From a virus (taxonomy: Duplodnaviria > Caudoviricetes), in IMG/VR virus record IMGVR_UViG_3300035703_000078, positions 4,288-68,287 of that record: 64,000 nucleotides of DNA. One strand, 5' to 3'. Below the pieces are notes generated by a model. The model did not search any database. It was not told the origin of the DNA and was given only the letters and a program-made list of their open reading frames with translations. A program made the translations under genes and the position numbers. Each line of letters starts with the position of its first letter. The stretch's first letter is position 1. Below are positions 270-25,872 of this stretch, piece after piece.

Positions 270-566
270 TTACGCCTTATGTTCTTCTGTTCTGCCATAA
301 TTTAAATCCTGAATCTCAACAATCATTCGCTTTGGGATTTTATTAACTTGTGCTGTTTCATCTGGACCTACAGTATTGGTTACTGCAAAATGATCAGCAT
401 CCTCATGTAATATAAAACCTACTGTAACCATGATAGGCAAGGGATCTTTAGCATAATTCAAAGCCTTGTTTCTATCAAGCCAGCCTTCACCACCAATAGT
501 TACTGCATCAATCCAACTAATTAAAACTAACTGAGGGATTGTTGGATATGTAATATTATTAGGCAA
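270..566 (-). CDS. conserved phage hypothetical protein (WxDA...TVGF...IPK type)
   Basis: C-terminal part of ORF 270..704; the likely start is TTG at 566, overlapping the RNAP stop; the pattern LISWIDA..GW..TVGFILHED..IPK resembles a common small phage family. Confidence 0.55.
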   Translation of the reverse strand: MPNNITYPTIPQLVLISWIDAVTIGGEGWLDRNKALNYAKDPLPIMVTVGFILHEDADHFAVTNTVGPDETAQVNKIPKRMIVEIQDLNYGRTEEHKA

Positions 567-2997
567 AGAAATATTTAGATCCGAGTACTTCGGAAACATC
601 GAACTCTCCGTCTGGTTTTGGACAGTCGGGAAGGAAGATTTTGTATTTCTTTTCAATTTCTTCTTTGAGGTTTTCAAGCTGATTCTCCTGATGAATTTTA
701 ACAAACTGTTCTCTTAGTATACTGTGCATCTCATCTACATCTGGTGCATATGTTCCAAAGGAATCATGCACCATTGAGAAAGCACACATACCTTGATTAA
801 GCATTTCTCCAATTGTCATAAACATATGAGCTGCATCTAGCGCATGGATAAAGTTTGGAGAAATCGCCAGATATTGTGCCTTGCCGTCGAGATCTTCCGT
901 AACAGTTGAGAATACCAACTGCTGCCTGTTGAATAGTTCGGCATAGGAAACCCTTTCTAACACTTGATTGTACACATGATGTACTTCAAACCCGCTGGGA
1001 GTTGTCCATACAAATGGTTTATTAATACTATTTAGAATGTCTGCAACAGATCGCAACCATTCCTTACCTTTGTTGGGTGACTCCATAGTTTCTCCCAAGC
1101 CAGCTTGAATAGCTCTGCTTAGTTCTACTACAGCACCACCCCTGGATTCCTTTGGAACCCAATCAACATGGCCTTCTTGCTTTACATACTTCTGCATACC
1201 ATAGAATGTAAGTCCATAAGCATCACACATAGTAGGACGCTTGGCTACAGCCCTTGGTAGTTTATTATCCCAGTTAAGTAAGAATACCTGATACCAATTA
1301 TTTTCTTGGTGTTGCTTCATGTATTCTGTACTGGCATCTGCAACAAACTGATACAAATCTTGAGGAGATTCTGAATCAATTAGGTTTGTAAGTACAGCAA
1401 GTTTCTTATTACGCATAATAGCAGACCAATGTTGACCACCATTATTTGCACCATCCATTTGAATATTGAGCTGTGTCATACCATCAGTACGAGCAAACTC
1501 AAAGATAGCAGCAAGACGTTGGAATGATTTATTCTTTTTCTTTGAGGCATCAATCCATTGCTTGTTTGAATAGGGATCAGATGCTATTGCAATAAGCATT
1601 TCAGCATTATCATCTACCCATTTAACACGATCTTCAAATGGAATCTTATCCTGATCAAATAGGTTTGCTAGGTGTACCTTTAACCAGAACAAGCCACGCG
1701 GTGTCTGCTTGCGTGGTGAAGCAAAGTGAACAAGTCCACGATCAAAGTCTACACCTTGAGGTGATAGCAATTCACATACTGAATAAGCTCTACCTCTAAA
1801 GTCTAGTGTATATGGCATGTAAAAGAAGTTCCAATCTAGCATCTTCTTAGCTAGCTGTAGTCTTACAATCATTCTACTTCTAGCTTGTTCTTCTTTATAC
1901 CATTCACCCCATGCTTCATTAGATTCCTGCATCCACTTAGCTTGCTCTTCCTTTGTCCCTCCCTCCGGGTATGGCCTACTGAATGCATAGTCTTTAAAAG
2001 TAAATGCAGGTAGGTTAGCAAGCTTGTAGTCATTCTCAAACATAGTCTTCATTACATCATAGACTTGTTTGTTTACTGACCACTCAGTATGGCTGAGGGC
2101 ATTTAGACCACGGAGAACTAGTTCACTTGGTCGTGAGTCCCAATCCTTTGGGTTTGCACCAACAGGATGATATCGCTTGATCATCTTCTTACGGATCCAG
2201 GGAGATAAGAAACCACCATCTTCCTTTGCTGTGTGCTGGATAGGTGGACAGATCATTGGTCGATATACCAGACATGCTGCTTCAAGTAACTCATGTCGCT
2301 TGCTTAGTTCCTTGAGAATCCAAGGAGCAAAACAAACAAGCAATGACTTACGATTCTTTCCATTCCAATGTACCCTACTTACTAGGATATCACTGGATAG
2401 AGCAATGCGTAGCATGTTATGTCCTAGGTCTTCCTTTTCCTTAGCCTTTAGCTTTGGAATAGATCCGACCTTCTTAGTAAATGCTTTGCACCGCTTGATT
2501 GTCCAGTTCTTAATGAACTTGGATTGCTTTCTCCAATCTTCTGAGAACTTCTTCTTTGCTTGTTGATAAGATACAATGTTAATAACATCATCTGCAATTA
2601 ACTTAGCTACTTGCTGTGCTACTGGTGCATTACTTGGAATGCCCATTGTATCATCGAAGCTTTGAATTGTATTCCTAGTTAGGAATAAGCGCATTACATT
2701 TCTAATAGTAATGTCTGCCATCTTAGCTGCACCAACACAAAGTAATGGTGCTAACCAATCAGGCGACTTACGGTTATTAGAACATGTGTCAATCCACTTT
2801 TGATAGAAAGGTGTAAGATGAATAACTGCGCTTTCAAGTAGTAATTGCTCAGGCTTTCCTTCATCGACAGCACGGTTATATTCCTTCCAGTATTTTTCAA
2901 TACCATTATCTAGCAGATCTTCTTCAAATAACTTTTGATTAGTTACTCTAAATTCTTTTTGTTCTGGTGTTAGTTGATTCCAGGTAGTTAGTTTCAC
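559..2997 (-). CDS. T7-like single-subunit DNA-directed RNA polymerase (canonical, 812 aa)
   Basis: DFRGRAY, motif A MDGANNGGQH, motif B RAVAKRPTMCDAYG, WTTPSG, PNFIHALDA, motif C VHDSFGT, C-terminal YFFA. Confidence 0.98.
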   Translation of the reverse strand: MKLTTWNQLTPEQKEFRVTNQKLFEEDLLDNGIEKYWKEYNRAVDEGKPEQLLLESAVIHLTPFYQKWIDTCSNNRKSPDWLAPLLCVGAAKMADITIRNVMRLFLTRNTIQSFDDTMGIPSNAPVAQQVAKLIADDVINIVSYQQAKKKFSEDWRKQSKFIKNWTIKRCKAFTKKVGSIPKLKAKEKEDLGHNMLRIALSSDILVSRVHWNGKNRKSLLVCFAPWILKELSKRHELLEAACLVYRPMICPPIQHTAKEDGGFLSPWIRKKMIKRYHPVGANPKDWDSRPSELVLRGLNALSHTEWSVNKQVYDVMKTMFENDYKLANLPAFTFKDYAFSRPYPEGGTKEEQAKWMQESNEAWGEWYKEEQARSRMIVRLQLAKKMLDWNFFYMPYTLDFRGRAYSVCELLSPQGVDFDRGLVHFASPRKQTPRGLFWLKVHLANLFDQDKIPFEDRVKWVDDNAEMLIAIASDPYSNKQWIDASKKKNKSFQRLAAIFEFARTDGMTQLNIQMDGANNGGQHWSAIMRNKKLAVLTNLIDSESPQDLYQFVADASTEYMKQHQENNWYQVFLLNWDNKLPRAVAKRPTMCDAYGLTFYGMQKYVKQEGHVDWVPKESRGGAVVELSRAIQAGLGETMESPNKGKEWLRSVADILNSINKPFVWTTPSGFEVHHVYNQVLERVSYAELFNRQQLVFSTVTEDLDGKAQYLAISPNFIHALDAAHMFMTIGEMLNQGMCAFSMVHDSFGTYAPDVDEMHSILREQFVKIHQENQLENLKEEIEKKYKIFLPDCPKPDGEFDVSEVLGSKYFFA

Positions 2998-3149: not shown

Positions 3150-3178
3150 GTAGTTTATTTCTCTAGCAATATACTAGG

Positions 3179-3895
3179 TTACTGGGAATCAAGCCAACTT
3201 TTCATAGTCAAAGCACACCATGAGTGCTTCATTAAACTTGGAATAAGAGCATCAATAACTTCAGCATAGACTCTAATTTCTTTTTGAGCATGCTTGCTAA
3301 CACGCTGTGAATAGAAACGAGCTAGTGCCGACAGTGATCCAGTCCAATACCATTCAGTATAAGTAGACTGTGGTAGCACAAACCGTGCCTGTTCAGGAGC
3401 AATACCAAGTTTAATCAAACTATTATAGGCATTGTTAGCTACAGTAATTGCATCTTGATATACAGCCCAAGCTGTATTGTAATCTTCAGTAGTAACATAG
3501 CTACCACTACCCTGCTTTACAGAACCTTCTGGTCGATAAGACCATTCGGGAATAAGGAATTCAGGTTGATCATCTACATATCTACGAGATACTTCATTCT
3601 CAACAAAACCAACCTTATGCTTGAAGAACTGAGTCCTGATTGGCATAGGTGCTTTGATGTGGAATGTAAGAGAAGTATGAGCAAATGGTGTCCAATGGTT
3701 ATGCTTGGCTAGATAATTAATCAACCTAACATCCTTGTCACATAGATGCATACTACCCATATCACCATATTCCCAAGAGCTTTCCTTGTTAAAGGAAACT
3801 CTAGCTGCATTGACTACGGATAGATCACTACCCATAAAGTCAACAAGCCGTACAAATCCAGCATTACCAACAGGAATCTTTTTATCTGATTGCAT
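3179..3895 (-). CDS. thyX: flavin-dependent thymidylate synthase
   Basis: VVNAARVSF, HNHWTPFAH, KHKVG..NEVSRRY (RHR-x7-S variant), PEQARFVLP, HAQKEIR. Confidence 0.96.
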   Translation of the reverse strand: MQSDKKIPVGNAGFVRLVDFMGSDLSVVNAARVSFNKESSWEYGDMGSMHLCDKDVRLINYLAKHNHWTPFAHTSLTFHIKAPMPIRTQFFKHKVGFVENEVSRRYVDDQPEFLIPEWSYRPEGSVKQGSGSYVTTEDYNTAWAVYQDAITVANNAYNSLIKLGIAPEQARFVLPQSTYTEWYWTGSLSALARFYSQRVSKHAQKEIRVYAEVIDALIPSLMKHSWCALTMKSWLDSQ

Positions 3896-4487: not shown

Positions 4488-5417
4488 TCAAACAAGAGCA
4501 AGAGCTGCGTTCATAACATCAATCTTGTACTTGGCGCGATTGCCAAAGACAACATCGTTGAACTTATTCTCTGTCTTCTTGTTACCACGATAGATTTGGC
4601 CGTGGTCCAGCCAGTTGGTCACGGCATTAGCCGCATTCCACATATTGTAACCAACCTGTCCAGCTTCTTCATCGAAGGTGTTAGACCATCGAATCATAAC
4701 AGAAGCAGCACGATTGTTGGCATCAACTTCCTTTTCATTTGAAGGGTTGTTGTGGATGTCACCAAACATGTTCATGTAAACCTGAGTCCAGAACTTCTGG
4801 ACAAACTCAACAGTAACATTCTTATTGGCAAGATCATTTGCCTTGTTGGCAAAGACTTCAGTAACCTTCTGGAACTGTTGAATACCATCAACCAAGGAGT
4901 CAATTCGTTCCTGAACATTACCCGTGTGCTTGATAGAAATACCCATCTTCCTAGTAGAAAGAGCAAGGTTCAGGGTGTTTTCACAGATAACGCGAACTGA
5001 GGTTGGAAGGATATCCAAAGCATGCAGACCATTATGACCACTAGTAAATAGTGTATAAGGTCTGACTTCATCATCGCGCTTGCCAACATTGAAGCTGTTG
5101 CCACGCATGAGATACCAGACACGCTGACCACCACCGAGACAACCAGCGGTTTCAATCTTAACCTTATCGCTGATTTGTTCAGCCATAAAGCCAAGTTCCT
5201 GGTTCTGAATTACCTGGTAGTCTGGGCCAACAATACCAAGGATAGTATCATTGTCAGTACGCACAGTAGCAAAGAAACGATTGGTAGTAACAGAGATTCC
5301 ATTGTTGTCTGCAACAATAGGACTCTTGTTAACTGTCCAATTAAGGTCTGCCTTTTCATTGGCTTCGACCAACGATAGACCATTTACATCTGTTCCAAAA
5401 GAACTAAAGATTGACAT
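4488..5417 (-). CDS. DUF932 / LGT_TIGR03299-like protein
   Basis: LNWTV, LGIVGPDYQVIQN, ETAGCLGGGQRVW, SGHNG, VRVICENTL, IKHTG, WNAANAVT. Confidence 0.9.
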   Translation of the reverse strand: MSIFSSFGTDVNGLSLVEANEKADLNWTVNKSPIVADNNGISVTTNRFFATVRTDNDTILGIVGPDYQVIQNQELGFMAEQISDKVKIETAGCLGGGQRVWYLMRGNSFNVGKRDDEVRPYTLFTSGHNGLHALDILPTSVRVICENTLNLALSTRKMGISIKHTGNVQERIDSLVDGIQQFQKVTEVFANKANDLANKNVTVEFVQKFWTQVYMNMFGDIHNNPSNEKEVDANNRAASVMIRWSNTFDEEAGQVGYNMWNAANAVTNWLDHGQIYRGNKKTENKFNDVVFGNRAKYKIDVMNAALALV

Positions 5418-7330: not shown

Positions 7331-7408
7331 CTCCTAGGTATACCTAGGTAATATTAATACTATAGTAATAATAATACCTAGGTTTAACCCCTAGCTATAT
7401 ACTAGGTT
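7331..7408. promoter_or_regulatory. AT-rich palindrome cluster (possible promoter or origin)
   Basis: CCTAGGTATACCTAGG perfect palindrome, TATTAATA, TACTATAGTA and further CCTAGG/CTAG sites, between a terminator and the middle operon. Confidence 0.4.
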
Positions 7409-7443
7409 AAAAGGGGTAGCCTAGGGATTAACCTAGGCTACCC
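7409..7443 (-). terminator. intrinsic terminator (CCTAGG family)
   Basis: GGGTAGCCTAGG-6 nt-CCTAGGCTACCC 12-bp stem, then CTTTT on the minus strand. Confidence 0.8.
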
Positions 7444-7450
7444 AGTTCAT

Positions 7451-7717
7451 TCAGAACGGAAGAGGAACATTTTCCACAATGTTCACAGTCACACCCTCAA
7501 CGAGGGGCGGGCGATCCAGCTTGGGGCTGGGGCGGCTGATCTTGCCCTTCAGGGCAGGAGCCTTGGGATGGGCAGCATTTTCGTTTGCCCAAACAGAAAC
7601 GGGAACCTTAACGGTTTCCTGACCAATCGTGATGGTCACATAACCGTTAAACTTGGGGGCCTGGGGGTTGGTGGTATTCACCACCCACAGGTCAACTCGA
7701 CACTGATTCACTGTCAT
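7451..7717 (-). CDS. putative ssDNA-binding protein (DUF736-like)
   Basis: Likely start ATG 7717 (GAGG SD); duplicated NPQAPKFNG / HPKAPALKG motif, VSVW, C-terminal PF. Confidence 0.5.
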   Translation of the reverse strand: MTVNQCRVDLWVVNTTNPQAPKFNGYVTITIGQETVKVPVSVWANENAAHPKAPALKGKISRPSPKLDRPPLVEGVTVNIVENVPLPF

Positions 7718-7808
7718 TGTCACTATCCTCAAAAGTTTCTTCGGGAGCCATACCATATTCAGACATCAGCTGCTCCCATTCGCTGACATCATTCCAATTA
7801 TCAGGCAT
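7692..7808 (-). CDS. very acidic 38-aa peptide
   Basis: AGGAGG SD; MPDNWNDVSEWEQLMSEYGMAPEETFEDSDNDSESVSS. Confidence 0.55.
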   Translation of the reverse strand: MPDNWNDVSEWEQLMSEYGMAPEETFEDSDNDSESVSS

Positions 7809-7821
7809 TTGTGCCTCCTGA

Positions 7822-8390
7822 GAAAGACAGTCTACAGGTTTCCCCATAGACTGCCTAGTAACCCTATTAGCTTGCTCTAGGCCAGGGTGGGTTAGGTCCT
7901 TAGCCTAGGTTATTACTACCCCTTATTTACTTTATATCGGGGTCAGCCTACTATAGTAGGGTAACAGTTTGAACAAGCGGTCAGGACTGTTCACTTTACC
8001 TGACGTAGCCTACCCAGCTTTGTGGGACTGTTAGTAAACCAAGACGCTACAGTTTGTTGCGCAACAAAACCGTAGCCGCACTATGCCTAATTTCTATTTA
8101 TACTCGCATAGTCGAGTAATCTAATATATGCCTTAGTATAAACCTTAGATTAGCGGGTTTATACTTATGATCCTGTCTAGTTGGATCCCAGGCGTATTAC
8201 CACAGGGTAGACAACTCCCAGGGCGTTTACTGGATAGGTTGCGGCCTACCCAGTATCCTATTGCGGTCTACCGTCTACCGTCTGCAACGGCTCCGCCAAT
8301 GAGTTTGTGAGTAGTTTCTAGTCATGCTCAGGACTACGAGTCGGGCAACCCGCATGCTGTCCTCTAGGACTATCCGGTTGCTTGCCCCGT
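7822..8390 (-). ncRNA. putative structured ncRNA or array of pseudoknots
   Basis: About 570 nt without an ORF of 60 aa or more; at least four complementary loop-tail pairs forming H-type pseudoknots plus hairpins; ends in a terminator-like hairpin. Confidence 0.55.
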
Positions 8391-8394
8391 TGTG

Positions 8395-8727
8395 TCATCG
8401 GTGTTGGCCGTAGTAGGCCTGTTCCTCCTGGCGGTAACACCTACACAGCTGATCAAGTTCTTCTACCCGCTTTTCGAGCTTCCTGATCTTTTCTGTAATC
8501 CCCACTGAACTGATGGGGAACTGCTTGACCTTTAGATACTGCTTGGAGGATCTAAAGGTCATCCCAAGGTCGTTGTTGTGGTCAATGACCACCTGCTCTC
8601 CGGGCTCAAAATACCGGTCGAACACAAACAACTTAAGTAGTTCCTCTCCCGAGAGTCCCTTTTCAACTACCAAGTACGGTCTAAGGGGAGCATCAGAATA
8701 CTCCCCAATTTCGATTAGAACTAACAT
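8395..8727 (-). CDS. hypothetical protein with C-terminal coiled coil
   Basis: AAGGGG SD; 110-aa ORF. Confidence 0.7.
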   Translation of the reverse strand: MLVLIEIGEYSDAPLRPYLVVEKGLSGEELLKLFVFDRYFEPGEQVVIDHNNDLGMTFRSSKQYLKVKQFPISSVGITEKIRKLEKRVEELDQLCRCYRQEEQAYYGQHR

Positions 8728-8742
8728 TTTATTCCCCTTTGA

Positions 8743-8922
8743 TCAGTGCGGATACCCAAACTTGCGAAGACAAGTGAGAACCAACGCCATGATTACTGGC
8801 ATTGCCACCAAGCAAGTGGGAATGACAAGAAACGGTTCGTTTGTCACAGCAAGGGTGACAAGAAGGAACCCCGTCAAGAATGCCGATAAGTACGCTATCG
8901 GCCAGCACACCTGGTACTTCAT
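8743..8922 (-). CDS. small two-TM membrane protein, 59 aa
   Basis: GAGG SD; MKYQVCWPIAYLSAFLTGFLLVTLAVTNEPFLVIPTCLVAMPVIMALVLTCLRKFGYPH. Confidence 0.6.
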   Translation of the reverse strand: MKYQVCWPIAYLSAFLTGFLLVTLAVTNEPFLVIPTCLVAMPVIMALVLTCLRKFGYPH

Positions 8923-8944
8923 TTTTGACCTCTCTTTGGAAAGA

Positions 8945-9190
8945 AATGAGGTTTTAACTAGGTTATCCTCTACCTAGGCCAATAATCCAAACCGTAAGTA
9001 CTTGCCTGTGACATAGGCTTTCCGTAGCTGTATTCCCTGCAAGGCAATACAGCGGTTATTATGTGTGTCCCCCTATTTATATACCGCCTAGGGGAGGTTG
9101 CTTGCGGTTCTATGGTGGTTGCAGCCACCGTTATACCCCGTTTGGGGTATTAGAAATCGCCACCCGTAGGTTTCCCCAGGGGTGGGAGGA
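8945..9190 (-). ncRNA. second structured non-coding block (hairpins plus two pseudoknots)
   Basis: Stem/loop-tail complementarity at 8948-8977 and 9068-9108; hairpins at 9027-9053, 9113-9129 and 9133-9150. Confidence 0.4.
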
Positions 9191-9197
9191 TCTGGAT

Positions 9198-9464
9198 TTA
9201 CTGTCCCAGTTCAGCCAGTTGGTTCTGGATTACCGTCGCCTTGGCCACAGCTGCGGAGATTGTGGCCTCCGTAGCCTTGGGATTCAAGATGACTCCTCCA
9301 ACCAAGCCGTTGAGCTTGAGCTTGAGCCTGTCCTGTTCCGACAGGGCCTCGCGCCGGGCTTGGCGAGCTTCCGCCTTGGCGAAGTGCTCGCTCACGTTGG
9401 TGGTGATTCCGAGGGAAGCCAGAGCTTCCTGTCGGCTCTTCAACTCTGCATCAGACAAAGGCAT
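9198..9464 (-). CDS. hypothetical helical protein, 88 aa
   Basis: AAGGAGG SD before ATG 9464 (MPLSDAELK); first gene after the N4-like hairpin. Confidence 0.75.
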   Translation of the reverse strand: MPLSDAELKSRQEALASLGITTNVSEHFAKAEARQARREALSEQDRLKLKLNGLVGGVILNPKATEATISAAVAKATVIQNQLAELGQ

Positions 9465-9549
9465 GAATGCCTCCTTGTATTGGGGATGGTTAGGGGTATG
9501 CAACAAGCACAACCAAAGCCAACCCCGACAATGAAAACTTCCGTTTTCA

Positions 9550-9569
9550 CCCACGACACACGAAGTGTG
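9550..9569 (-). promoter_or_regulatory. N4 vRNAP-type hairpin promoter candidate
   Basis: Template (+) strand reads CC-ACGA-CACAC-GAA-GTGTG: CC, 4-nt spacer, 5-bp stem, C(GAA)G triloop. Confidence 0.5.
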
Positions 9570-9594
9570 GCGCGAGCTTTAGGGTATTCGTGGG

Positions 9595-9860
9595 AAAAAA
9601 GCAGGTACACCCAGGTTCATGGGTAAATTTCGGTAAATCCCATTAGAAGCCAGGTAGATTTGGGGCTACCGCAGGGCCTTTTAGGTATTCCGTGGCTTCC
9701 TAGGGCATCCTAGGCCCCTTAGCGTAGGCCCAGGTACTCAGGCTACCCACCATCTAGGTACAAACCGTAGGCCCCCTACTGTAGAACTAGTTAACATCTA
9801 GGTACTACTTGGGGTACTGGTAGGTACGGATGGGTAGGTACAGGTTACCAGGGGGTAATA
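9595..9860. repeat. non-coding tract of short AGGTAC/TAGG repeats
   Basis: Multiple (C/T)AGGTA(C) and TAGGCCC units, strand-skewed, no ORF. Confidence 0.5.
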
Positions 9861-9866
9861 ATAACC

Positions 9867-9900
9867 AAATAGAAAACCCCCCAGGTATTACCTAGGGGGT
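9867..9900 (-). terminator. intrinsic terminator (CCTAGG family)
   Basis: CCCCCCAGGT-ATT-ACCTAGGGGG stem; TTTTCTATTT follows on the minus strand. Confidence 0.75.
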
Positions 9901-9915
9901 AGGGAGAACGGAACA

Positions 9916-10440
9916 TCAGACCAGAACAGTGAATTCTGGCATGCGATGACCGTTCTTGGAGGGAACGATGCGGTGAGCCGGGTACTCCAGTTCCACGGCA
10001 CGCTTGTTCCATGCCGCTGACCAGTAGGCTTCTGCTTCTGCGGGAGTCTGACCCCATTCTCGCAGGCAGGCAGTCAGGTTCCGTTCCCGGCACGGAGCCA
10101 GAAAGAACCTCGACCGAAGCACCAACCTGCCTTCGGCCATCCAGGGAGGAGTGGACCCGCTAGGGTCACGGCTGATGGTAACCCCATTGCTGAGGTACAC
10201 CCAACCGTCCAGATCCGCTCCGTAGCGGGTCTGCATCTCCTGGTGGATCTTGACACCGAACCCCATCTGGATAATGTCCAGGTGGGTGAACTTCGTGCGG
10301 TGTCCACGCACGTCCACGCGCCAGCTGGTGGAGTTGGTCCACACCCGATAGGCGTGTTCCCCCGTGCTGAAGAACATGGGGGCGGAACCCTTGGTAGGGA
10401 CGAACTCGACTGAGCCAAGCACAAACTGTGAAGTTGTCAT
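9916..10440 (-). CDS. hypothetical early protein, 174 aa
   Basis: GGAG SD before ATG 10440 (MTTSQF); GC-rich codon usage. Confidence 0.75.
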   Translation of the reverse strand: MTTSQFVLGSVEFVPTKGSAPMFFSTGEHAYRVWTNSTSWRVDVRGHRTKFTHLDIIQMGFGVKIHQEMQTRYGADLDGWVYLSNGVTISRDPSGSTPPWMAEGRLVLRSRFFLAPCRERNLTACLREWGQTPAEAEAYWSAAWNKRAVELEYPAHRIVPSKNGHRMPEFTVLV

Positions 10441-10497
10441 ATGACATCTCCATATACTAGGTTTAAGGTTATTGGGATACAAACCTAGATAAACTTT

Positions 10498-10536
10498 CCC
10501 ATAAGAAATCCCCCCTAGGGATTACCTAGGGGGGAA
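10498..10536 (-). terminator. intrinsic terminator (CCTAGG family) after the mini-RNAP gene
   Basis: TCCCCCCTAGG-GATTA-CCTAGGGGGGA stem, then TTTCTTATGGG. Confidence 0.8.
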
Positions 10537-10549
10537 GTTGCGGGTAGTA

Positions 10550-12427: not shown

Positions 12428-12481
12428 TGGGTGGTTTCCTCTCTATAAGAAGGAGTTAGGGCTTGACTTATATAGCTCTAG

Positions 12482-12515
12482 CCATGAGCTTGCCCAACAG
12501 TTGGGCTTGGGTTAC
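12482..12515 (-). promoter_or_regulatory. hairpin promoter-like element upstream of the mini-RNAP gene
   Basis: CCATGAGCTT-GCCCAA-CAG-TTGGGC-TTGGGTTA aligns without gaps to 13020-13052. Confidence 0.45.
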
Positions 12516-12520
12516 ATTTA

Positions 12521-12560: not shown

Positions 12561-12579
12561 AGAGGAGGATTCAATCGCC

Positions 12580-12993: not shown

Positions 12994-12999
12994 ACCACT

Positions 13000-13561: not shown

Positions 13562-13567
13562 AGTACA

Positions 13568-13625: not shown

Positions 13626-13639
13626 GGAATCTACCTGGG

Positions 13640-13675
13640 AAAAAAACAACCAGAGAATTATTAGTTCTCTGGTTG
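13640..13675 (-). terminator. intrinsic terminator between late and early regions
   Basis: CAACCAGAGAA...TTCTCTGGTTG stem followed by a T run on the minus strand. Confidence 0.8.
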
Positions 13676-13764
13676 CTTTGTTTGATTGGGGGGGGGATAG
13701 AGGGGGATATCCACCCTCTAATTCCTTACATAACCCCTCAGAAATTTCTGACCCCTAAGTCGAT

Positions 13765-16700: not shown

Positions 16701-19700
16701 GATTAGCATCTGTAATTATTCCATGTAATAGTTCTGAAGACTTACGATATGTATCTCCAAGTCTACGGATAGCAGCTTGTTCCTTTTCATTGAATGAAGG
16801 ATCAATCTTACCGCTGGCTAGGTAACTAAATGACTCTAGGATAATATCTCCAGATCTATTAGTTGCGCCTGGTACTGGGATTGCTGAAGAAAACTCTGAA
16901 ACAATTTGGTTATAAACAGAAGATACTTGATTAACCAATAGATTTACTTGGTATTGGTTTTGTTTAATACCATCCAATCCACCGTTACCTTCAAAGTATG
17001 AATCTACTGTTTGTGCTTCGGCATCAATTAAGTGCGCTAATGATACAATAATACCAAAGGCAGAGTTATAGGTTTGGCCAGATTGATTACCAGTTACAAG
17101 ATAAACAGAAGTAGAAATCTTCTGTAGTGTTTGGATTAATCTATTTCTTGCATGTCCATCGTCTTGCATAGACACAGTGCCTGAGAATAGATTCATCATT
17201 TGTCTAGCTAGATAAGCAGCTGTACCTGGGCTATCGACACGCTTGCCACGAATTTCTGACAGCCTTCTAATAATATGATCTGCCAGTACAATCTCTTCTT
17301 CTGTTGTTTCTGCATAATCAAACTCACGACCTACAACATCATTTCTGTTGCGTAGCCTAGTTAATGTATCATAGTATAGTTCATCAGAGATACCTAAGTG
17401 GTCTACATTGTTCTGCCACTTATCTCTAATAGAGTCTAGTTCTCGTTTAACTCTAGCATATTCTGCCGAGTTTGGATCCAGTGTACTAAGCTCTTGAGTT
17501 AATCTTCTGTACTGATTCTGATTTCTTTCTTGCTCTTCAAGATAAGTAGTACGCTCAGCCAATGTTGAACCGGGATTATAATATACATCCGCATTTGAGA
17601 TAATAAAACTTTCTTCAAGTACATCATCATATACAGCTTTGTCTTCCATTCTAAGATCTGAAGTAGCATCAAAGAATCCGTTAAAGACTCTGTTTACTTT
17701 GTCGGATACACCAACAAATCTACTACCAGTCATTTCATCTAAGAATGTAACTAGATTATTTACAAAGTATTCAATGGATTTAAAGGTTCTCTTCCACCAA
17801 GAATTAACCTTACTAGCTATATTGTTTTCTTCCTCTATAGTCTTTAGCTCAACACGATCTTTACCCATTGCTCTTGTAATAAGCATTTGGCTTCCCCACA
17901 TAACCAAAGCTTCTTCCAAGTTTTGTTGATAGTAAGAAACTAGTTTAGTGATTTCATTTCTAGTTAGCACCCCACCAGCAAAAGCATTAGTAACCATTTT
18001 TTCTATTGCTTCTTGCCCGGTGTCTGTCATTAAGCTTTCAATTGCTTCTTCATAACCAATCCTATCTCTAATCTTAGAATAGTTTAAAGCAATATGAGAT
18101 AGCTCATGTGCTATTACTTCAATAGCTTGTTCAGTTGTTTTGCCAGCAACTGCTGCTTTAATTGTATCTGGAGACTTGGCAAAGACAATATTAAATACAT
18201 CGTTAACCTTACGGATTTTAGCTAATCTATTTCCTTCAACACTATCTATGCTAATAGTCAAGTGACCTTCAAGTTCTGGATGCTTATGTAAAATAAATCC
18301 AACCATAGCTCTATACATCTGTTCTGTCAATGCATCCAACCCTAAAGACTTAATTTGATTATTTAATTGTTCACCTGAATTTACAAATGTAGACAAGAAT
18401 ATTGTTTCATTGCCAAACTTATTGGCTGATTCTTTTGGTCCAGTTCCATAGAATGAAAGACTTAATTGAGAATCTTCTTTTAAGTTTTTAATAGAGTGAG
18501 AAACAGCTAGTCTAACTTTATTCTGTTGTTCTGCATTTAGTTTTTTACCTTTTTCTTCCTGATTAGCAATAAACCGAACAGTAGCATCTAGTTCATTTAG
18601 TTGATCAGTTGGAATATCTAACTGCTGTAAGAAAGCTCTAACTGGTGTATAAAACTCATTAGACTGTGGATCTGTAATGCTTCTAACTACATTTAGAATA
18701 ATTTGGATATCACTAGTTAAAGCATCAACCTTAGCTTTTGAAATACCCTCTCTACTAAACGTGTAATCAACAAGAGCTCTAATAGCATTGAGTTCCATTG
18801 TTGGCTTTGATATAGCCAATGAAATAATTGGAAGTAGTTGTCTAATCTCTTGAGCATTATTATTTAAAGTACTGTTAATAGTATTTAAAGCAGACTTAAG
18901 ATTGTTATTTTCAGCAATTGCTATAGCTCTTTGAAGTGGCATAAGCAAAGCTAGTTCATATGCTTTTACAGTAAATGGTGTAGATCGACTATCTAAATAC
19001 TTAGTAGAAATTAGATTAAAGTTTTCTTTAGCTAAGTATCTAATAGAGTCTAAGATTTCATACTGAACATTATATCGAGCATCATACATACCACCATCTA
19101 AAGTATACAGTGGAGATAGTCCAGCATGAAGAGCCGAGAAAACTGTAGCTTCATCGGCTTTTAATTCTCTAGCCCCATTGTAATATTCTAATGTTCTTTG
19201 CAGATTGCCACGCTCTAGGTTTGATTTCTTTTGACCAATTGATTTATTAGTAGCATAAGCAAGTTCAGCCTGGTTTAGTATAACAGAGTTTCGTAGCGCA
19301 AGTAACAATGAGTTTAACATTTCTGGTGTGAACGCATACTTTGTTTTACTATCATTAACATTTACTTGTGGAACTGGACCAATGGCTGTTTGAATATCCA
19401 TTGTATTAGGTGTTGGTGTATCTACAACAAGTTCAGCTGTATTTTGATACTCATTATAAAGTACATATAGTCCTACGGATCTTATGTCAGCTTCTGTAAA
19501 CTCTGGTCTACTTAGAATTTCTGGTAGCAATGTAACTGCTGCGTTTGCTGGAATTGATTCCGGTATTACCTGACCAGCAGGATCAAACTCGACACCAGCA
19601 ATATTTCTAGCCTTGACAAGTTCAGTGGCTACTTGTTTTACTTTTGTTAGGTTGTAAAGAATAAATACAAGGTTAACAGCATCCATAGCTTGTACGGTTA

Positions 19701-22700
19701 CTGGTAGTGTTCTTGTGTTTTCGTCAATAGGTTGCGAGTCGGGTCCTGCTACTCTAGTTCTTGATGAAACAGTAAGACCATACTTAAGACTTCCTAATTG
19801 TTCTGATGCATCAGACAACATTGTAAGAAGGTTGTAATATGTGGGACTTCCACGCATGCCCTTAAACATCTTTGGATTAAACCCACCAAAGTAATTAAAG
19901 TCTAGCTGTGTTACATCCTTATCCATTGTATTGTGTTGATACTCAATGATATCAAACATGGATGTTAAGAACTTTGATACACCTAAGTTATATTCAGATA
20001 CTAAAGTATTTTCATCTGCATTATAAACCTTACCAAGTTTTCTTAGTAGTGGGTAACCACCTCGGACATGAGCCATTCTAATGAAATGAACAGCAGCCCA
20101 GTTTTCTCTACCTCGCGGTAAGAGATGCATTAATCCATTTTGCTTTGCAAACCTATAAAGTCTGCTTTGAATTCTAGCTTGCTCAACGGCAAGTTTAGTT
20201 GATACATCTGTTAGATTAGTAAGTAAACCCAGTGACATAAGTTCTCTTGGAACATATGGTAAAGATTCTGGGTTTACTGTATGAGTGTAACCTATAGCTT
20301 GTTCTGGAATAATATCTGTTACAGAACTTGGTGCTTTATTCTTCTTACTTGCCCTTACCCAGTTTTCATTTTCTTTATCAATACGGCGTTCAATAGCCAA
20401 TTCTGCTAAAGCGTAAATAGGTAGATCTGTAATATCAATATCGGCAGTCTTGGGTCTAAATGCAAATATACCCATCTTTTGATTAGACTCTTCAAATGCT
20501 TTACTGGTATCCCCAATAACTCGGGATGGAGAAGCAAGGTATCTTAATCCCTGCTCTAGTAGCAAGCCGCGCTTACGGGCTTCTTTAATCCAGTTCTTGG
20601 CGTTAGGTCTTGCACCACCGGGTGTAACAACGGATTCAATCTGAGCCTCTGCCTGGGCTGTTCTTAGGGTTTCTATACTACGCCGTCTGGCATAGAATTC
20701 TCTTTCCTTTTTACTAATGCGCGACCAATCTTCTAGGAATCTTTCAGGTGTCTCTAAAGTTTTATCATTATAGTCATTAGCCATATACTCAGTAGCCAAC
20801 CGTAATTCATATTGCTGTAGGACTAATTGAGTAATGTATCTACGGGCTTCTTCTGGATTTTCTCTTGCTAGTCTAGCAAAAGAAAACTCGTCAATTTCCC
20901 ATAAAGCTGTAGTGTTTACATCGGCTGGATCAAAAGGAGCTGGGGTAGCAACTTGAGAATAAGAAGGACCCTGGTATGAAATACCAGATGGTGTTGTGTA
21001 CATACGACCACCAGCCAAGTCTCTGGCTAAACTCTGGAAGAAAAGATAGTTCCCAGAATTACCAAGATAGTCATTTACATTAACACCAAACTCTTCTGTA
21101 GCTTCTCTAATAGCTTCTTCTCTAATCCTAAGTGGTGTTCTATTAGCAGTGTTTATAGCAGCCAATAGCGGTAAGTCTTTCCAAGCCTGGGGATCTCTAC
21201 CCATAATCTCAGCTAGCTTAATATATTCTCCACGGGTTGTAAGAGTACCACCCTTAGTTCTTACATACTCTCGACCCGCGTTAATTCGGTCAGCCCACAA
21301 TTTAGCAAGACGTTGTTTCTTATTATTAATAGCTGACTCTAAAGATCCAAACTGCATAATATCACTAGGTTTTACCAACATTCTTGCAGCTGCATCAATA
21401 CGAAGATTGATAAGATTAGTTAGTGTTGTATCATCAATGATACCGCGACCAAACTCTGTAGATCTTCCCATTTCTTCAAGAACTGCATGATGTCTTTGTA
21501 TACCATCTTTGTAGAAAAGTTTTTTGTTCCACTCATCTAGTTGTTGTTTTAGTTTAGTTCTACCTTCGACCGAAATATTTATTGTTTCGTCTATTAACTT
21601 AATTAATCCAATAACGCCGCTAAACTCAGCATCCTTTAACAAAAAATTAATATCAGCATTGTTAATAACAATAGATGGGAATGTTTCTTTAAACTCTGGA
21701 TCTTGAGTTTTTTCAAATAGAGCTTGTGAAATACTAGGAATACCGCCCTGATACAAACGAGGTAATACAGCAGCTTTAAAGAAATCTCTAAAGGTTCTCT
21801 TAGATCCTGTTTCATCCATGCTGTTTAAAATAGCATTCCACTTTTCTAATGAATCAAACTTAGCTTGTTCATCTTTAGTTAGCGGTGCTGTTTGTTTTCT
21901 TTCAGATAGTTTAACATACTGCTCTGCAATATTCTTTTGGACTTGAAGAGATACTTGAGTATAAAAGTCATCCTTGTTAGCATCTACAGTTGACCACCAT
22001 TCAGAAAGATTTAGATTTTTTATAAGGTTTGCTACACCTCTAGTACCTACGTCGTTTGGAATATTGTAAGCCAACATTAACATTAACATGTGGTGAATAC
22101 CGTTAAAGTCAAAGTCAAAGTAATCTATATTCTTTAATTGCAGTTTACCAGCTTGAATACCCTTAGCTGTTTCTTCAAGTGATGTTTGAATAGCACCATC
22201 AGTAATACCATATGTTTGATACCAACCCAACTGAGCTACAAGTTGACCGTTGATAATTGATCGTGCAGACCAAGCACCAGGTGATGCTTCTAGTCTGGAG
22301 AATTTTAAACTCTTACCATCATTATCTACAACTACTTTTGTTCTTAAGAATACAGAGTCATGCACTACAGCAACACCAATTGCTGGTAAGTCTAGTAAGG
22401 TTTCTAGAGTTCTATCTAGTGTATCTTCAATTGTTGGAAGCTCATTAAATAACTGTCTGTTATTTACCGTAGGGGTAATATCGGGAATTATTGTTGTTGA
22501 CTTAGCTAATACAGAAACTCTACGCATATACTCAGCCCCACGAATGTCGGCTAGTTTCTTTCGTAGTTCTTCTTCTGACAATCCTTTGTATCTATCACCG
22601 TTTAGAATATGGTTTATTCTTTGCCGTAAAGCCCAGTCATTGTATACTTCTTCATATTGCTTAAGAGATATTGGAGCAAACATAGATACATTTTTTCTAT

Positions 22701-25700
22701 GTGGTTGTCTAACTTTTATAGACTCAGATAGATTCTTTGCATTGTTTTCCAGGTCATTCATTGTAGATAGTGGAGTAACAAATGCTTGCTCTTCAATAAA
22801 TCTAGAATCCATAATACCATCTCGCCTACCCATTGCAATCTGAGCTATAGCATATCCTACATTCCAAGCAGGAGCATAATCAGTATTACCATTACCAAAG
22901 TCTGTTATAGCTTTTGCTTTAACTGATGGCAAGATTACTTCGTTAATAAAAGCTTTAATGTAGTCTGCTTGGGTTTCTGATCCAGTCTTTTCTCTAAATC
23001 CATACTCAACAATCTTTTCATTCATTCGAGAAACTATCTGATCGGCTGGTACTTTATCCCCTGCCATATCTAAGTAGAACTGATTAAATGCTTCAATTAC
23101 TGCTGCTTCATACTGAGACTCAGCTGTTGTACTGGTAGTTGCTTCAATATATTTTGGTTCGCCTTCAATGATTGAAAGAATAAACTTTGGTTCTCCATCA
23201 GAACCAAGTAAAGCTTTCTTTGCTTCAATACCAGCTTGTCTATGTGTTCTCATTAACTTCATCTGAGTAACAAGAACTTCTTGTTCTTTTTTAGTAAGTC
23301 TTTCGGCTTCTTTAATTAAAGTTTCTCCAACTACAGCTGTATCTGGATCTGCTCTTAAAGATAAAGACATATGCAATAGCAACTGATCTCTAACTGCCTC
23401 TGTATTAAATAGCAGTCTAGATGTTCTTTCAGCATTATTAGATTCACCAACAAAGTTATTTATTGCTGGTTGTACTCCAGGTGCATTGTACTCTGAAAAA
23501 AATCCATTAAAGTTACTATTTGTGTTACTGTGGAAAATAGCAAGTTGCCACGTTTGAAGTGGATTACTTAAACTTAAATTTACAGTACTCTTATCTACAT
23601 TGTTTACATTAACAGTAAGATTTCGTGATGGGTTTGATTTTAGGTTTTCAATAATCTCAAATACCAAATCAGAGTCGTTTCTAGAATACTCTAGTGCCTT
23701 TAAAGTTTCTTCTTCTGTTTTTGCTGCAAGTAAAAGATCTACTACACTTGTGCCAGTTACGCCTTTAATCTTTCCTCGACCAAGTGTTGCTGTTGCAAGG
23801 TTGTCTAAATTAACAGTAGCTCCATATTGCATCTTAATCCAAGCGTACATATCGTATGATCTTAAAGCAACCCGAGCGGCTAGATTTGATGATTCTTCTG
23901 TACCGATAGATTTAGCAATACGAGCTAAATCAAATCCAACATTATTAAATCCAGCAACCTTCCATCCCATATTTTGCATTAATTCTAAAGAGCGTAAGAA
24001 TCGCAGTAGATCTTCTTTTGAATAAGCAGTAAAGTTACCAATAGAACCCTTAGCTGGATTTGAAACAAGCTGTTCAATAGAAGGATCAAGTCTTTCTTCT
24101 GTTGCTGAGTGTCTAATAGAAATCATAAAGATCTCATCACCCCTTGTTTCAATATCAAATGAAATAACTCTATCCCAGTTTCTTGCGTACTCATCTGGGT
24201 TTGCTACTTCAGGTAAACCCTTAATTGCCCTTGGATCCATACCTAAATTAGCAAAAGCTTTTTCTAATGCTGGCGGTACAGGTAAGCTAGATAAAGCCGG
24301 AGCTGTTAGTCGTGCTACAGATGTTGCAGTTACAACAGCACTACTAAAATAGATGTCTGGATTTAGTAGGTGTAACTGTGGTCCTAGGGCTGCTAAAACC
24401 ATATCTCTTGACATGTGCTCTGAGAACTGTGGTAGTTTTCTCAGTGTTTCTACACGCTCTAAGGCTTGCTTTAACATTACATAAAGCTTCTTAAAATCAG
24501 TGCCTTCTTTAAACTCTTTAATCTTTTGTTCTCTAGTACTAAGAGTTTCTTCCTTAGCTTTGCTGGCTGTTCTAGCCTTTGGCATAACAGTATCGTTATT
24601 TACCTGGTCTTCGTTTTCAATATCCATGTTATTGCTAGCTGCTTTTAGATTATCTGCTAACATTTGATCTTCTGGTGAAAACTCAAAACCTAAAGCAATG
24701 CCATTTGAAAAAGCCTGATCTATTGCTAGATTAGCTAATGTATTAAAGATAGAAGATAGTGTATTGTTATCTAGTTCAGTGCTTCCCTTTAAGGACTTTG
24801 CTTTTTCTTTTGGATTAACTTTATTGTGGGTATCAATAATTAATTGATCAATAGAAACACCCAAGTCTCCAATTACTGCTTTTAGTTCTGCTACAGTAAC
24901 TTTGCCGCCCTTTTCTTTTCTAATAGCATCCAACAAAGCCTTACTTGTATTAAGCACCTGAATACCCTGTTTGGCTAATTCAAACAATTGCTTATCATGT
25001 TCTAGGGTATTACGAGAATCAATTAGTTCATTTAGAGCAAGGCGGTATGTAGATGAGTTTTTATCAATCTCAGAACTAAGTTCTTTAACTGCTTCATATA
25101 GAGATATTTGACCAGCTGAGTCTGCTTTCTGTTGCTTTCTAAATGCCTTACTTAATAAGATTTCATTTGTTTTTGTGGTAGTTTCTTTGACATTCTCATC
25201 AATCTTTTTTTGAATTTCTTTTTTCTTTTCTGGGTCTGTTTCTCTTTGAAGCTCACCAACTAAAGCAAATCTAGTATTGTTTAGTTGTTTAATTGTCTCA
25301 TTGTTTGAAGCCTCAAATTCATAAGACGCATTAACAGCATTAAGTAAAGCTTTAGTTTTTTCTAGTCTACCTTCAAACTCTATGTTCCTAATAAATCTAC
25401 CAGCATTTCTATTCTGATTTTCGGTTGCTTCTATTTTTCTAATTAATCTATTAAGTGTTCTTGCTTCTTTAATTTTACCTTCACTAAGGAACTTACTCTC
25501 TAGCTTTCTTAGTTTTTTCTTTAGTTCTAGAGTTTCCTTTGTTTTGAATCCCTCGGCAATAAGTACTTTACCTTCCATATAAGCTTGCCACTTAGACCAT
25601 AAAAAAGTAAATTCAGACAGATCATCATTAGTAACTTTAGTTATATCACCCCTAGCTCTTCTAAACTTTGAAATTAGTTTATTAAGCTTATCAATATCTG

Positions 25701-25872
25701 AAGTTGTAAATAAAGAATTAGTAAGGGTTTTTGATACCAAGTCGGCAGATGCATCGGTTTCAACAGACTTTTCAAATAAAGAAACAACAGTATCAATTGT
25801 TTCAGGTTCTGCACCACTTGACTTTAATTCTTCTCGTATCTTGTTTAAAACCTCTTCGCTGCATTTGCCCAT
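13765..25872 (-). CDS. giant internal virion (gp16-position) polyvalent protein: DEDDy exonuclease, T7/N4-family RNAP-like module, HExxH zincin motif
   Basis: 4035 aa; last of the internal virion genes; FD573IE, GFNNVGFD, YSRND; T1135VNNR, D1253FDFNGIHH, R1362DFFK1366AAVLPRLY1374; H2589ELSH; hydrophobic C-terminal region. Confidence 0.75.
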   Translation of the reverse strand: MGKCSEEVLNKIREELKSSGAEPETIDTVVSLFEKSVETDASADLVSKTLTNSLFTTSDIDKLNKLISKFRRARGDITKVTNDDLSEFTFLWSKWQAYMEGKVLIAEGFKTKETLELKKKLRKLESKFLSEGKIKEARTLNRLIRKIEATENQNRNAGRFIRNIEFEGRLEKTKALLNAVNASYEFEASNNETIKQLNNTRFALVGELQRETDPEKKKEIQKKIDENVKETTTKTNEILLSKAFRKQQKADSAGQISLYEAVKELSSEIDKNSSTYRLALNELIDSRNTLEHDKQLFELAKQGIQVLNTSKALLDAIRKEKGGKVTVAELKAVIGDLGVSIDQLIIDTHNKVNPKEKAKSLKGSTELDNNTLSSIFNTLANLAIDQAFSNGIALGFEFSPEDQMLADNLKAASNNMDIENEDQVNNDTVMPKARTASKAKEETLSTREQKIKEFKEGTDFKKLYVMLKQALERVETLRKLPQFSEHMSRDMVLAALGPQLHLLNPDIYFSSAVVTATSVARLTAPALSSLPVPPALEKAFANLGMDPRAIKGLPEVANPDEYARNWDRVISFDIETRGDEIFMISIRHSATEERLDPSIEQLVSNPAKGSIGNFTAYSKEDLLRFLRSLELMQNMGWKVAGFNNVGFDLARIAKSIGTEESSNLAARVALRSYDMYAWIKMQYGATVNLDNLATATLGRGKIKGVTGTSVVDLLLAAKTEEETLKALEYSRNDSDLVFEIIENLKSNPSRNLTVNVNNVDKSTVNLSLSNPLQTWQLAIFHSNTNSNFNGFFSEYNAPGVQPAINNFVGESNNAERTSRLLFNTEAVRDQLLLHMSLSLRADPDTAVVGETLIKEAERLTKKEQEVLVTQMKLMRTHRQAGIEAKKALLGSDGEPKFILSIIEGEPKYIEATTSTTAESQYEAAVIEAFNQFYLDMAGDKVPADQIVSRMNEKIVEYGFREKTGSETQADYIKAFINEVILPSVKAKAITDFGNGNTDYAPAWNVGYAIAQIAMGRRDGIMDSRFIEEQAFVTPLSTMNDLENNAKNLSESIKVRQPHRKNVSMFAPISLKQYEEVYNDWALRQRINHILNGDRYKGLSEEELRKKLADIRGAEYMRRVSVLAKSTTIIPDITPTVNNRQLFNELPTIEDTLDRTLETLLDLPAIGVAVVHDSVFLRTKVVVDNDGKSLKFSRLEASPGAWSARSIINGQLVAQLGWYQTYGITDGAIQTSLEETAKGIQAGKLQLKNIDYFDFDFNGIHHMLMLMLAYNIPNDVGTRGVANLIKNLNLSEWWSTVDANKDDFYTQVSLQVQKNIAEQYVKLSERKQTAPLTKDEQAKFDSLEKWNAILNSMDETGSKRTFRDFFKAAVLPRLYQGGIPSISQALFEKTQDPEFKETFPSIVINNADINFLLKDAEFSGVIGLIKLIDETINISVEGRTKLKQQLDEWNKKLFYKDGIQRHHAVLEEMGRSTEFGRGIIDDTTLTNLINLRIDAAARMLVKPSDIMQFGSLESAINNKKQRLAKLWADRINAGREYVRTKGGTLTTRGEYIKLAEIMGRDPQAWKDLPLLAAINTANRTPLRIREEAIREATEEFGVNVNDYLGNSGNYLFFQSLARDLAGGRMYTTPSGISYQGPSYSQVATPAPFDPADVNTTALWEIDEFSFARLARENPEEARRYITQLVLQQYELRLATEYMANDYNDKTLETPERFLEDWSRISKKEREFYARRRSIETLRTAQAEAQIESVVTPGGARPNAKNWIKEARKRGLLLEQGLRYLASPSRVIGDTSKAFEESNQKMGIFAFRPKTADIDITDLPIYALAELAIERRIDKENENWVRASKKNKAPSSVTDIIPEQAIGYTHTVNPESLPYVPRELMSLGLLTNLTDVSTKLAVEQARIQSRLYRFAKQNGLMHLLPRGRENWAAVHFIRMAHVRGGYPLLRKLGKVYNADENTLVSEYNLGVSKFLTSMFDIIEYQHNTMDKDVTQLDFNYFGGFNPKMFKGMRGSPTYYNLLTMLSDASEQLGSLKYGLTVSSRTRVAGPDSQPIDENTRTLPVTVQAMDAVNLVFILYNLTKVKQVATELVKARNIAGVEFDPAGQVIPESIPANAAVTLLPEILSRPEFTEADIRSVGLYVLYNEYQNTAELVVDTPTPNTMDIQTAIGPVPQVNVNDSKTKYAFTPEMLNSLLLALRNSVILNQAELAYATNKSIGQKKSNLERGNLQRTLEYYNGARELKADEATVFSALHAGLSPLYTLDGGMYDARYNVQYEILDSIRYLAKENFNLISTKYLDSRSTPFTVKAYELALLMPLQRAIAIAENNNLKSALNTINSTLNNNAQEIRQLLPIISLAISKPTMELNAIRALVDYTFSREGISKAKVDALTSDIQIILNVVRSITDPQSNEFYTPVRAFLQQLDIPTDQLNELDATVRFIANQEEKGKKLNAEQQNKVRLAVSHSIKNLKEDSQLSLSFYGTGPKESANKFGNETIFLSTFVNSGEQLNNQIKSLGLDALTEQMYRAMVGFILHKHPELEGHLTISIDSVEGNRLAKIRKVNDVFNIVFAKSPDTIKAAVAGKTTEQAIEVIAHELSHIALNYSKIRDRIGYEEAIESLMTDTGQEAIEKMVTNAFAGGVLTRNEITKLVSYYQQNLEEALVMWGSQMLITRAMGKDRVELKTIEEENNIASKVNSWWKRTFKSIEYFVNNLVTFLDEMTGSRFVGVSDKVNRVFNGFFDATSDLRMEDKAVYDDVLEESFIISNADVYYNPGSTLAERTTYLEEQERNQNQYRRLTQELSTLDPNSAEYARVKRELDSIRDKWQNNVDHLGISDELYYDTLTRLRNRNDVVGREFDYAETTEEEIVLADHIIRRLSEIRGKRVDSPGTAAYLARQMMNLFSGTVSMQDDGHARNRLIQTLQKISTSVYLVTGNQSGQTYNSAFGIIVSLAHLIDAEAQTVDSYFEGNGGLDGIKQNQYQVNLLVNQVSSVYNQIVSEFSSAIPVPGATNRSGDIILESFSYLASGKIDPSFNEKEQAAIRRLGDTYRKSSELLHGIITDANLKDRSRPFHDSYLAFKLDIDQFREEKNKAGYQTRRTQFIQSVSSLIRAKQLSQLQDLDRVHPVTFMLTSGLPTLKTSNSSDMSSEQEFISFIERNASGSTNPNSVEAIIFNSILSYAAQVKEGSVDLATKKDLIRSGATVGNSVALKDLKKGYKALLEASTSRTATVTGLLTAHSSGITPEQVKIIQNAIKNTITSDIGNPPNMKAKLQAMRSERFPIKIKEERNIFSASTNTIPELLAIDFLNTIGSSAAITYKDDINLTVDDIFGDNFTEVLGVEEMRSIRSGFSRDIRSIIKSIGSGLGQQAVSSSLIYKMTGVQGYDVLKLIRILKAYVDGANRPTGSHISQGQFERTEQGVRAKPLSQAEVKLLSDALTVLEHKYQYMWNMRSAVSGDAIGKNAIKFTTQAAHLIWGGNQIAAGILVDSSAAAVGAMMLGGAGGVLGFYGRYIGDVLRLSFGAFSDGWKQTQVRGDFADFAEILWDTNSNFVESWEKLYGEVDFTRKTGRLASRFLSFNQALNMSTSISARTALAKTALVQLNRQLNTNNLEEVRRMLIDGELESGNYRGYVTLMKKLKNNGFRKLSSPETILRMKAAGMFEVGVIESLKFLKQSGPISISQYMDKILDLDKDFSVNVDGVTVNKQMLIQAVGAIEKFQDLAVKQSLISSSAFDGVTDDSPLSKFLSLYRSYSILFAGQMLLRNSARMSTSKMAGLMLVYTITDIMYQTMLAAASGFLAGDEIERLLRGEPSEKTIKLIAKAAVRNPMFTLQGNFLLDTSLFLADTVAGNKGLEPEIAPLGVTAMVRLLKNLATNTNTFINAQSDEERIKSAYNGGLYLLPILNQAWFKTLINQGLATEAKKQTMGSFDSGRRNSEGRPMNTAFATAYAEYENMQLPTPNNIAQAILKSLYQTEMNNKLQQYMHQFKKKQMPNLGLTAPETPVPEKPVETTSTSEVMVGPKPSTSSSLQKEATTPIKAPDSLK

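Follow-up and report, generated by a model that had tools for sequence, protein, structure and literature searches.

The window analysed here, a stretch of 64,000 nucleotides spanning bases 4288–68287 of the 68,287-bp virus record IMGVR_UViG_3300035703_000078, is the near-complete genome of a marine, metagenome-derived T7-like podophage. It is well supported that this window encodes two phage proteins with the fold of single-subunit RNA polymerases (ssRNAPs), one of 812 amino acids (aa) and one of 625 aa, and the chance that a third, giant protein of 4035 aa contains a real polymerase-fold module is about one half. The reading that we favour, with a confidence slightly short of even, is that transcription is mostly run by the phage and divided in time among its own polymerases in the manner of phage N4; a host-independent cascade of three RNA polymerases (RNAPs) is plausible. 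To our knowledge, known T7-like phages carry one RNAP, and searches of an open-access library found no paper that describes a second ssRNAP, or a giant protein bearing a polymerase, in a T7-like phage.

The 812-aa protein (559–2997, minus strand) is a canonical T7-type ssRNAP, as a first-pass annotation of this DNA had proposed from the letters and translations. It matches PF00940 at E 1.5e-83 (281.5 bits against a gathering cut-off of 22) and phrog_414 at E 8.4e-159, and is about 28% identical to the RNAPs of cultured Autographiviridae. In an alignment with T7 RNAP (A5), it keeps the catalytic and DxxGR residues of T7, namely D421, R423, G424, R425, D537, G542, R627, Y639, G640, H784, H811, D812 and F882; the D537, D812, Y639, H784 and F882 columns are invariant throughout A5, and K631 is nearly so.

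The 625-aa protein (10550–12427, minus strand; GC 0.56), referred to here as the mini-RNAP, is a compact and divergent relative of these enzymes, and its structural model gives good support for an ssRNAP fold that is superposable on T7 RNAP or POLRMT. Its gene is the fourth or fifth open reading frame (ORF), about 1.3 kb downstream of the stop codon of the giant gene. Nothing useful was found for it in 50,697 phage records, and an exhaustive HMMER search returned nine cluster representatives, six of them full length at 32–38% identity; one virus contig encodes a relative that is 63% identical. When modelled with AlphaFold2 on a nine-row family alignment (A2, homologues 31–64% identical), the protein reached a predicted local distance difference test score (pLDDT) of 84 and a predicted template modelling score of 0.82. 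Foldseek against the PDB gave 73 matches at E ≤ 0.001 (best E 5.4e-10), and those listed are all single-subunit RNAPs, human or yeast mitochondrial or from T7. The top matches in BFVD are phage RNAPs (E 5e-11 to 1e-8), whereas pieces of N4-type virion RNAP (vRNAP) appear from rank 25 on and PolA from rank 39; N4 vRNAP itself is not among the 50 VIA or Foldseek PDB matches listed.

In the mini-RNAP family, S333, W336, K338, Y346, T347, R561, H562 and D563 are invariant in A2, D168..GGR173 is conserved, and D284-x4-G289 is conserved in all eight rows that cover that stretch. Compared by hhalign with a 17-row ssRNAP alignment, the family is collinear over 434 columns, pairing D168..GGR173-x-Y with T7 D421WRGRVY, D284 with D537, and H562-D563 with H811-D812. 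In motif A, G289 takes the ribose-gate position, equivalent to T7 G542; in the candidate motif B, K338 and Y346 have the right spacing and a threonine follows the tyrosine, and hhalign leaves both off T7 K631/Y639. Since the alignment starts at T7 residue 316, in the thumb, about 90 mini-RNAP residues appear to replace the T7 N-terminal domain of about 315. Size alone is not unprecedented, because BFVD holds short phage RNAPs of 648 aa (phiEcoM-GJ1) and 673 aa (phiV141). The earlier suggestion of a divergent 625-aa RNAP near the start of the early region is therefore borne out, both by the fold that AlphaFold2 and Foldseek recovered and by the motifs conserved in the family.

Relatives of the mini-RNAP were found on four further virus contigs and at 15 metagenome loci, and the gene keeps its place beside the giant gene wherever this could be checked. 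The giant gene precedes the mini-RNAP gene in five of five virus records (G000–G004), and a long frame runs off the 5′ end 0.6–2.5 kb upstream of the mini-RNAP gene at all 11 metagenome loci that have at least 2.2 kb of upstream sequence, the four other loci being too short. A PF00940 RNAP is present in four of these five records, and the remaining one is a fragment that ends 835 nt past the mini-RNAP gene. Co-occurrence in related contigs, put forward by the first-pass annotation as a check on its three-polymerase proposal, is thus seen for giant and mini-RNAP genes in every record and for the canonical RNAP in all but the fragment.

The giant protein (13765–25872, minus strand) stands at the end of the structural and ejection-protein gene block, where it closes a run of four proteins without family match (258, 1452, 918 and 4035 aa) after the terminase gene. 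Wherever sources name it or the mini-RNAP, each is called just a "hypothetical protein". Five full-length relatives (4027–4055 aa, 45–98% identity in the searched region) were aligned with it, together with one fragment and two distant relatives at 22–23% identity. No Pfam or PHROG match was obtained, nor a PDB-sequence match by single sequence or by profile; no lytic transglycosylase domain was detected with Pfam, and tblastn with aa 560–2400 found nothing in the 50,697 phage records. A DEDDy (DnaQ-like) 3′–5′ exonuclease domain is predicted at aa ~554–796 (23485–24213, minus strand), where the ExoI DxE, ExoII N-x-x-x-x-D and ExoIII Y-x3-D residues and the fold are all present, and D573, E575, N643, D648, Y729 and D733 are invariant in the close relatives. 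In the AlphaFold2 model of aa 541–1740, the overall pLDDT is 48.9 and that of the first ~130 residues 60–87, and the exonuclease domain is the sole confidently folded part.

Beyond the exonuclease lies an ssRNAP-like motif region at aa ~1135–1421 (21610–22470, minus strand), with R1139, H1171-D1172, D1253-x4-G1258-x-H1260, D1302-x-Y and K1366...Y1374..G1377; of these, R1139, D1253, G1258, H1260, D1302, K1366, Y1374 and G1377 are invariant even in the 22–23% relatives. The candidate motif A, D1253-F-D-F-N-G1258-I-H-H, has a spacing that fits T7. Giant aa 1302–1421 match the T7 RNAP fingers (569–687) in structure, and a local hhalign match pairs 1297–1317 with T7 564–584 (E 0.048); the two share one register, and in the hhalign register K1366 and Y1374 fall within two residues of T7 K631 and Y639. 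An ESM-feature search with aa 1001–2200 gave weak leads to RNAP clusters (0.81–0.84). The RNAP-like motifs that had been noted inside a 4035-aa virion protein are accordingly present and invariant; the label of virion protein is a candidate one that derives solely from gene position. Structural comparison returned a match to one part of the enzyme, the fingers sub-domain (giant aa 1302–1421), and not a complete polymerase fold.

Other placements of the giant motifs were tried and dropped. The assignments of VVHDS (1169–1173) to motif A or motif C, and of D998 to a motif A of the Pol-I type, gave way to D1253-x4-G-I-H-H, with its T7-like spacing and its invariance in distant relatives. A second module ranked by hhalign, DxxGGR at 1618–1623 with D1991 as motif A, was set aside: D1618, R1623 and D1991 are not invariant in alignment A6, and no motif B was seen after 1997.

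The mini-RNAP gene belongs to a GC-rich early block of short genes and non-coding stretches (7400–13700, minus strand), in which GC is 0.45–0.61, compared with about 0.36 for the giant gene; relatives L002 and L006 show the same rise in GC past their giant genes. Repeat family D1, at 9876–13307 (minus strand), is made up of five related hairpins that are rich in GC and each have a T-run and a conserved tail, with stems at 13282–13307, 13075–13104, 12534–12559, 10509–10535 and 9876–9900. These stems are 9–11 bp long and come directly after the stop codons of successive early genes; the tails end in TATGGGT or a near variant. A hairpin element with the same tail and other stems has five copies in L006 and one in L002, and in L006 the tail is word-for-word alike despite the stem differences. 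Because they follow stop codons and carry T-runs, the repeated hairpins resemble intrinsic terminators more than promoter hairpins of the N4 type, and the hairpin promoters that had been proposed for the early block are not upheld. Most likely, these hairpins act as terminators that isolate early cassettes. A conserved tail next to differing stems suggests a further sequence-specific role beyond termination, and these tails may serve as sites of initiation or processing.

A separate feature is a single-copy conserved element at 13731–13767 (minus strand), which overlaps the giant stop codon and contains a 14-bp palindrome flanked by G-runs. It has about 26 consecutive invariant columns in an alignment of four phages (A9) whose proteins are 22–64% identical, falls within a 37-nt blastn match to relative L015, and occurs once in the window; it may serve as the first promoter or as a genome-end/packaging signal. 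Around it, where the early block begins, 13000–13814 (minus strand) matches L006 22119–22934 over ~0.8 kb at 89% nucleotide identity, while in L006 the giant protein is 41% and the mini-RNAP 31% identical and the flanking proteins overall 31–42%. Either strong nucleotide-level constraint or a recent exchange of the module would account for this.

Searches for other promoters gave little. A sigma-70 scan found no gene-strand site at 8398–14380, in agreement with the earlier remark that the early leaders lack sigma-70 boxes, though this is a weak test, as the host is not identified; overall, 20 sites were counted against 24.5 ± 4.6 in shuffles, which is no enrichment. Within the window, no gene-strand 11-mer exceeds four copies, TACTATAGTA is not enriched, and the intergenic 10-mers comprise the hairpin family and A/G-rich words only. 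A shared 13-nt core (minus strand), a possible promoter class, occurs upstream of the canonical RNAP gene (3169–3181), after a hairpin at 7420–7437 (7397–7409) and after the mini-RNAP terminator (10452–10464). At two mismatches, seven copies were found where 3.6 were expected, which is not above chance; the copy at 7340–7409 recurs in L015 with 79% conservation over 80 nt.

Further RNA features were observed in the early block. A Pistol self-cleaving ribozyme (RF02679) is matched at 8065–8117 (minus strand) with 43 bits against a gathering score of 34.5, on the gene strand of a 640-nt non-coding stretch, and the site is 88–93% conserved over 41 nt in L002 and L015; this match suggests that early transcripts cleave themselves. 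Two 92-nt leaders that are 86% alike (12997–13088 and 13565–13656), each with short hairpins, immediately precede two small early ORFs that are unrelated to each other.

Among known systems, the mini-RNAP differs from the RNAPs of T7 and the Autographiviridae in falling below PF00940 detection and in lacking most of the N-terminal domain. The run of large unmatched proteins, with the largest last, resembles T7 gp14/gp15/gp16, although it follows the terminase rather than lying between the tail-tube and fibre genes, and its giant member, three times larger than T7 gp16, carries exonuclease and polymerase-like parts. Family-A DNA polymerases share the order of an exonuclease followed by Pol-A-superfamily-like motifs; however, the candidate motif A of the giant protein has a glycine, as RNAPs do, and not a glutamate five residues after the aspartate, ~400 residues separate its exonuclease from the motif region, and a T7-type DNA polymerase is encoded separately at 60059–61780.

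In N4, according to PMC4496689, an injected 3500-aa vRNAP acting on hairpin promoters is succeeded by the heterodimeric RNAPII and then by host RNAP. In PMC13434306, the vRNAP gene ends a cassette of three ejection genes that is the counterpart of T7 gp14–16, and PMC10654107 uses an ExDGxxxG motif to define N4-like vRNAPs. The present phage resembles N4 in having several T7-family polymerases, which would be used in sequence, a giant protein that is last in the ejection cassette (4035 aa, 3500 aa in N4), and a small second polymerase among the early genes (625 aa, with 269 + 404 aa for N4 RNAPII). It differs in its T7-like genome layout and in its full-length T7-type RNAP, which N4, using host RNAP late, does not have in the account of PMC4496689. 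Its giant protein has neither a Pfam N4-vRNAP match nor ExDGxxxG, and carries a DEDDy exonuclease, a term that PMC13434306 does not use in its main text; against N4 gp50, hhalign with the giant family aligned only two columns (E 0.3). The mini-RNAP is a single chain with no significant hhalign similarity to gp15 and gp16 (E 0.13–0.18) or to gp50, and the repeated hairpins do not match the geometry of N4 promoter hairpins. Of the N4-like logic on a T7-like chassis that the first-pass annotation envisaged, the T7-like gene order and two phage RNAPs stand, and the repeated hairpins look unlike N4-type promoters.

Under the favoured reading, the GC-rich early block would be read first, by a polymerase module in an injected giant protein, should this module be active, or else by host RNAP. 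Transcription of the block would yield the mini-RNAP, which would read the next genes, including the canonical RNAP gene, and the canonical RNAP would then read the replication and structural genes. Several observations weigh against such a programme. The mini-RNAP has no Pfam match even at E ≤ 10, being missed by the PF00940 model, and no PHROG or PDB-sequence match; its hhalign comparison with ssRNAPs has a weak E of 0.1, the motif B arginine is not conserved, and Ser/Thr stands where T7 has H784. As to the giant protein, its AlphaFold2 model is poor, and Foldseek on that model found nothing at E ≤ 0.001 and returned large helical proteins only (E > 0.1). Downstream of the candidate motif B, no segment could be assigned to motif C; the one that most resembles it, VVHDS (1169–1173), precedes motif A. 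The top local hhalign match, of 1622–1638 to the T7 DxxGR region, is non-collinear with the other motif matches. The ESM-feature search with aa 1120–1700 gave no RNAP cluster (best 0.76, unrelated). Pfam N4-vRNAP families had no match at E ≤ 0.1 in the whole protein or at E ≤ 10 in its parts, and where ExDGxxxG would be expected the protein reads Y-F-D1253-F-D-F-N-G1258, sharing only the D-x4-G part. To these are added the terminator-like nature of the early hairpins and the fact that the searches found no repeated T7-style promoter consensus for any of the enzymes.

The giant protein's lack of a recovered polymerase fold and of a placed motif C, together with an exonuclease domain that alone is confidently folded in the modelled stretch, speaks for a phage in which host RNAP reads the GC-rich early block from host-type promoters, the mini-RNAP serves in the middle phase and the canonical RNAP late. 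The giant protein would then act in ejection or in the processing of DNA ends, and its polymerase-like residues would be a degenerate or non-catalytic remnant. T7 itself begins with host RNAP, and the early hairpins have the classical shape of intrinsic terminators, which host RNAP obeys. We regard such a host-started programme as possible, if on the doubtful side. A remnant would be expected to drift, whereas even at 22% identity the RNAP-type residues of the giant protein do not vary, among them the glycine five residues past D1253 and the K...Y pair; the register of the fingers sub-domain also agrees with the motifs, and the empty stretch of the sigma-70 scan points the same way, weakly. 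At the opposite end, the giant protein would be an injected exonuclease with an active RNA polymerase that starts a phage-only cascade from giant to mini-RNAP to canonical RNAP, with 13731–13767 as the first promoter, the hairpin tails as re-initiation sites and the whole lineage independent of host RNAP. This fullest form of the cascade appears unlikely.

The remaining explanations concern the mini-RNAP and its block. T7 RNAP and mitochondrial RNAP make primers or transcripts at origins, and the mini-RNAP could be a maker of replication primers or origin transcripts, or another polymerase of the Pol-A superfamily, rather than a general transcriptase. We consider this improbable: the protein matches RNAPs better than DNA polymerases, it has the ribose-gate glycine and the motif B tyrosine, its gene sits in the early block, a long way from those for the primase-helicase and the DNA polymerase (60059–63476), and the phage encodes its own primase. 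It is more improbable still that the GC-rich block is a recently acquired foreign or mobile module without an integrated role in transcription, or that the mini-RNAP is an inactive pseudo-enzyme. The composition does set the block apart (GC 0.56 versus 0.36–0.40; GC at third codon positions 0.68 versus 0.24–0.33), and the ~0.8 kb of near-identity to L006 amid far more divergent proteins could reflect exchange. Against this, block, position and GC jump are common to relatives whose mini-RNAPs are 31–64% identical, which argues that the block is old and fixed in the lineage, and the catalytic residues of the mini-RNAP are invariant.

The rest of the genome is arranged much as in T7, with nearly all genes on the minus strand. 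The order, on that strand, begins with the primase-helicase (61761–63476) and the T7-type DNA polymerase (60059–61780), continues through exonuclease and ribonucleotide reductase genes to the portal (54103–55707), the scaffold and the major capsid protein (43721–45067), and then passes by tail tube A, tail tube B and fibre genes to the large terminase (33778–35442). Between the early block and the 812-aa RNAP gene sit small genes, a DUF932 protein (4488–5417, minus strand; E 1.8e-38) and ThyX (3179–3895, minus strand; PF02511, E 2.7e-45). At 63496–63727 (minus strand), just upstream of the primase-helicase, three tRNA genes for Lys(TTT), Leu(TAA) and Arg(TCT) stand side by side. The record ends in a 112-bp repeat, which is treated as probably an assembly overlap because it sits within an open frame across the junction.

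T7-like phages are the textbook case of a single phage RNAP that takes over from the host, and N4 is that of an injected RNAP with a second phage-encoded one after it. If one lineage does unite the two strategies, with a T7-type RNAP, a compact early-encoded RNAP and possibly a polymerase in its largest ejection protein, they would not be tied to separate phage families. In the mini-RNAP, nature may offer a minimal ssRNAP of 625 aa without the T7 N-terminal domain, a reduced enzyme in which one could study how promoters are recognised and how initiation gives way to elongation, and which might serve as an orthogonal tool for transcription. At E ≤ 1e-10, the databases hold 638 relatives of the canonical RNAP, many of them on 65–72-kb contigs from ocean surveys, so that the biology described here may be common; should the phage-only cascade prove true, it would mean that a widespread marine lineage of T7-like phages is independent of the RNAP of its hosts.

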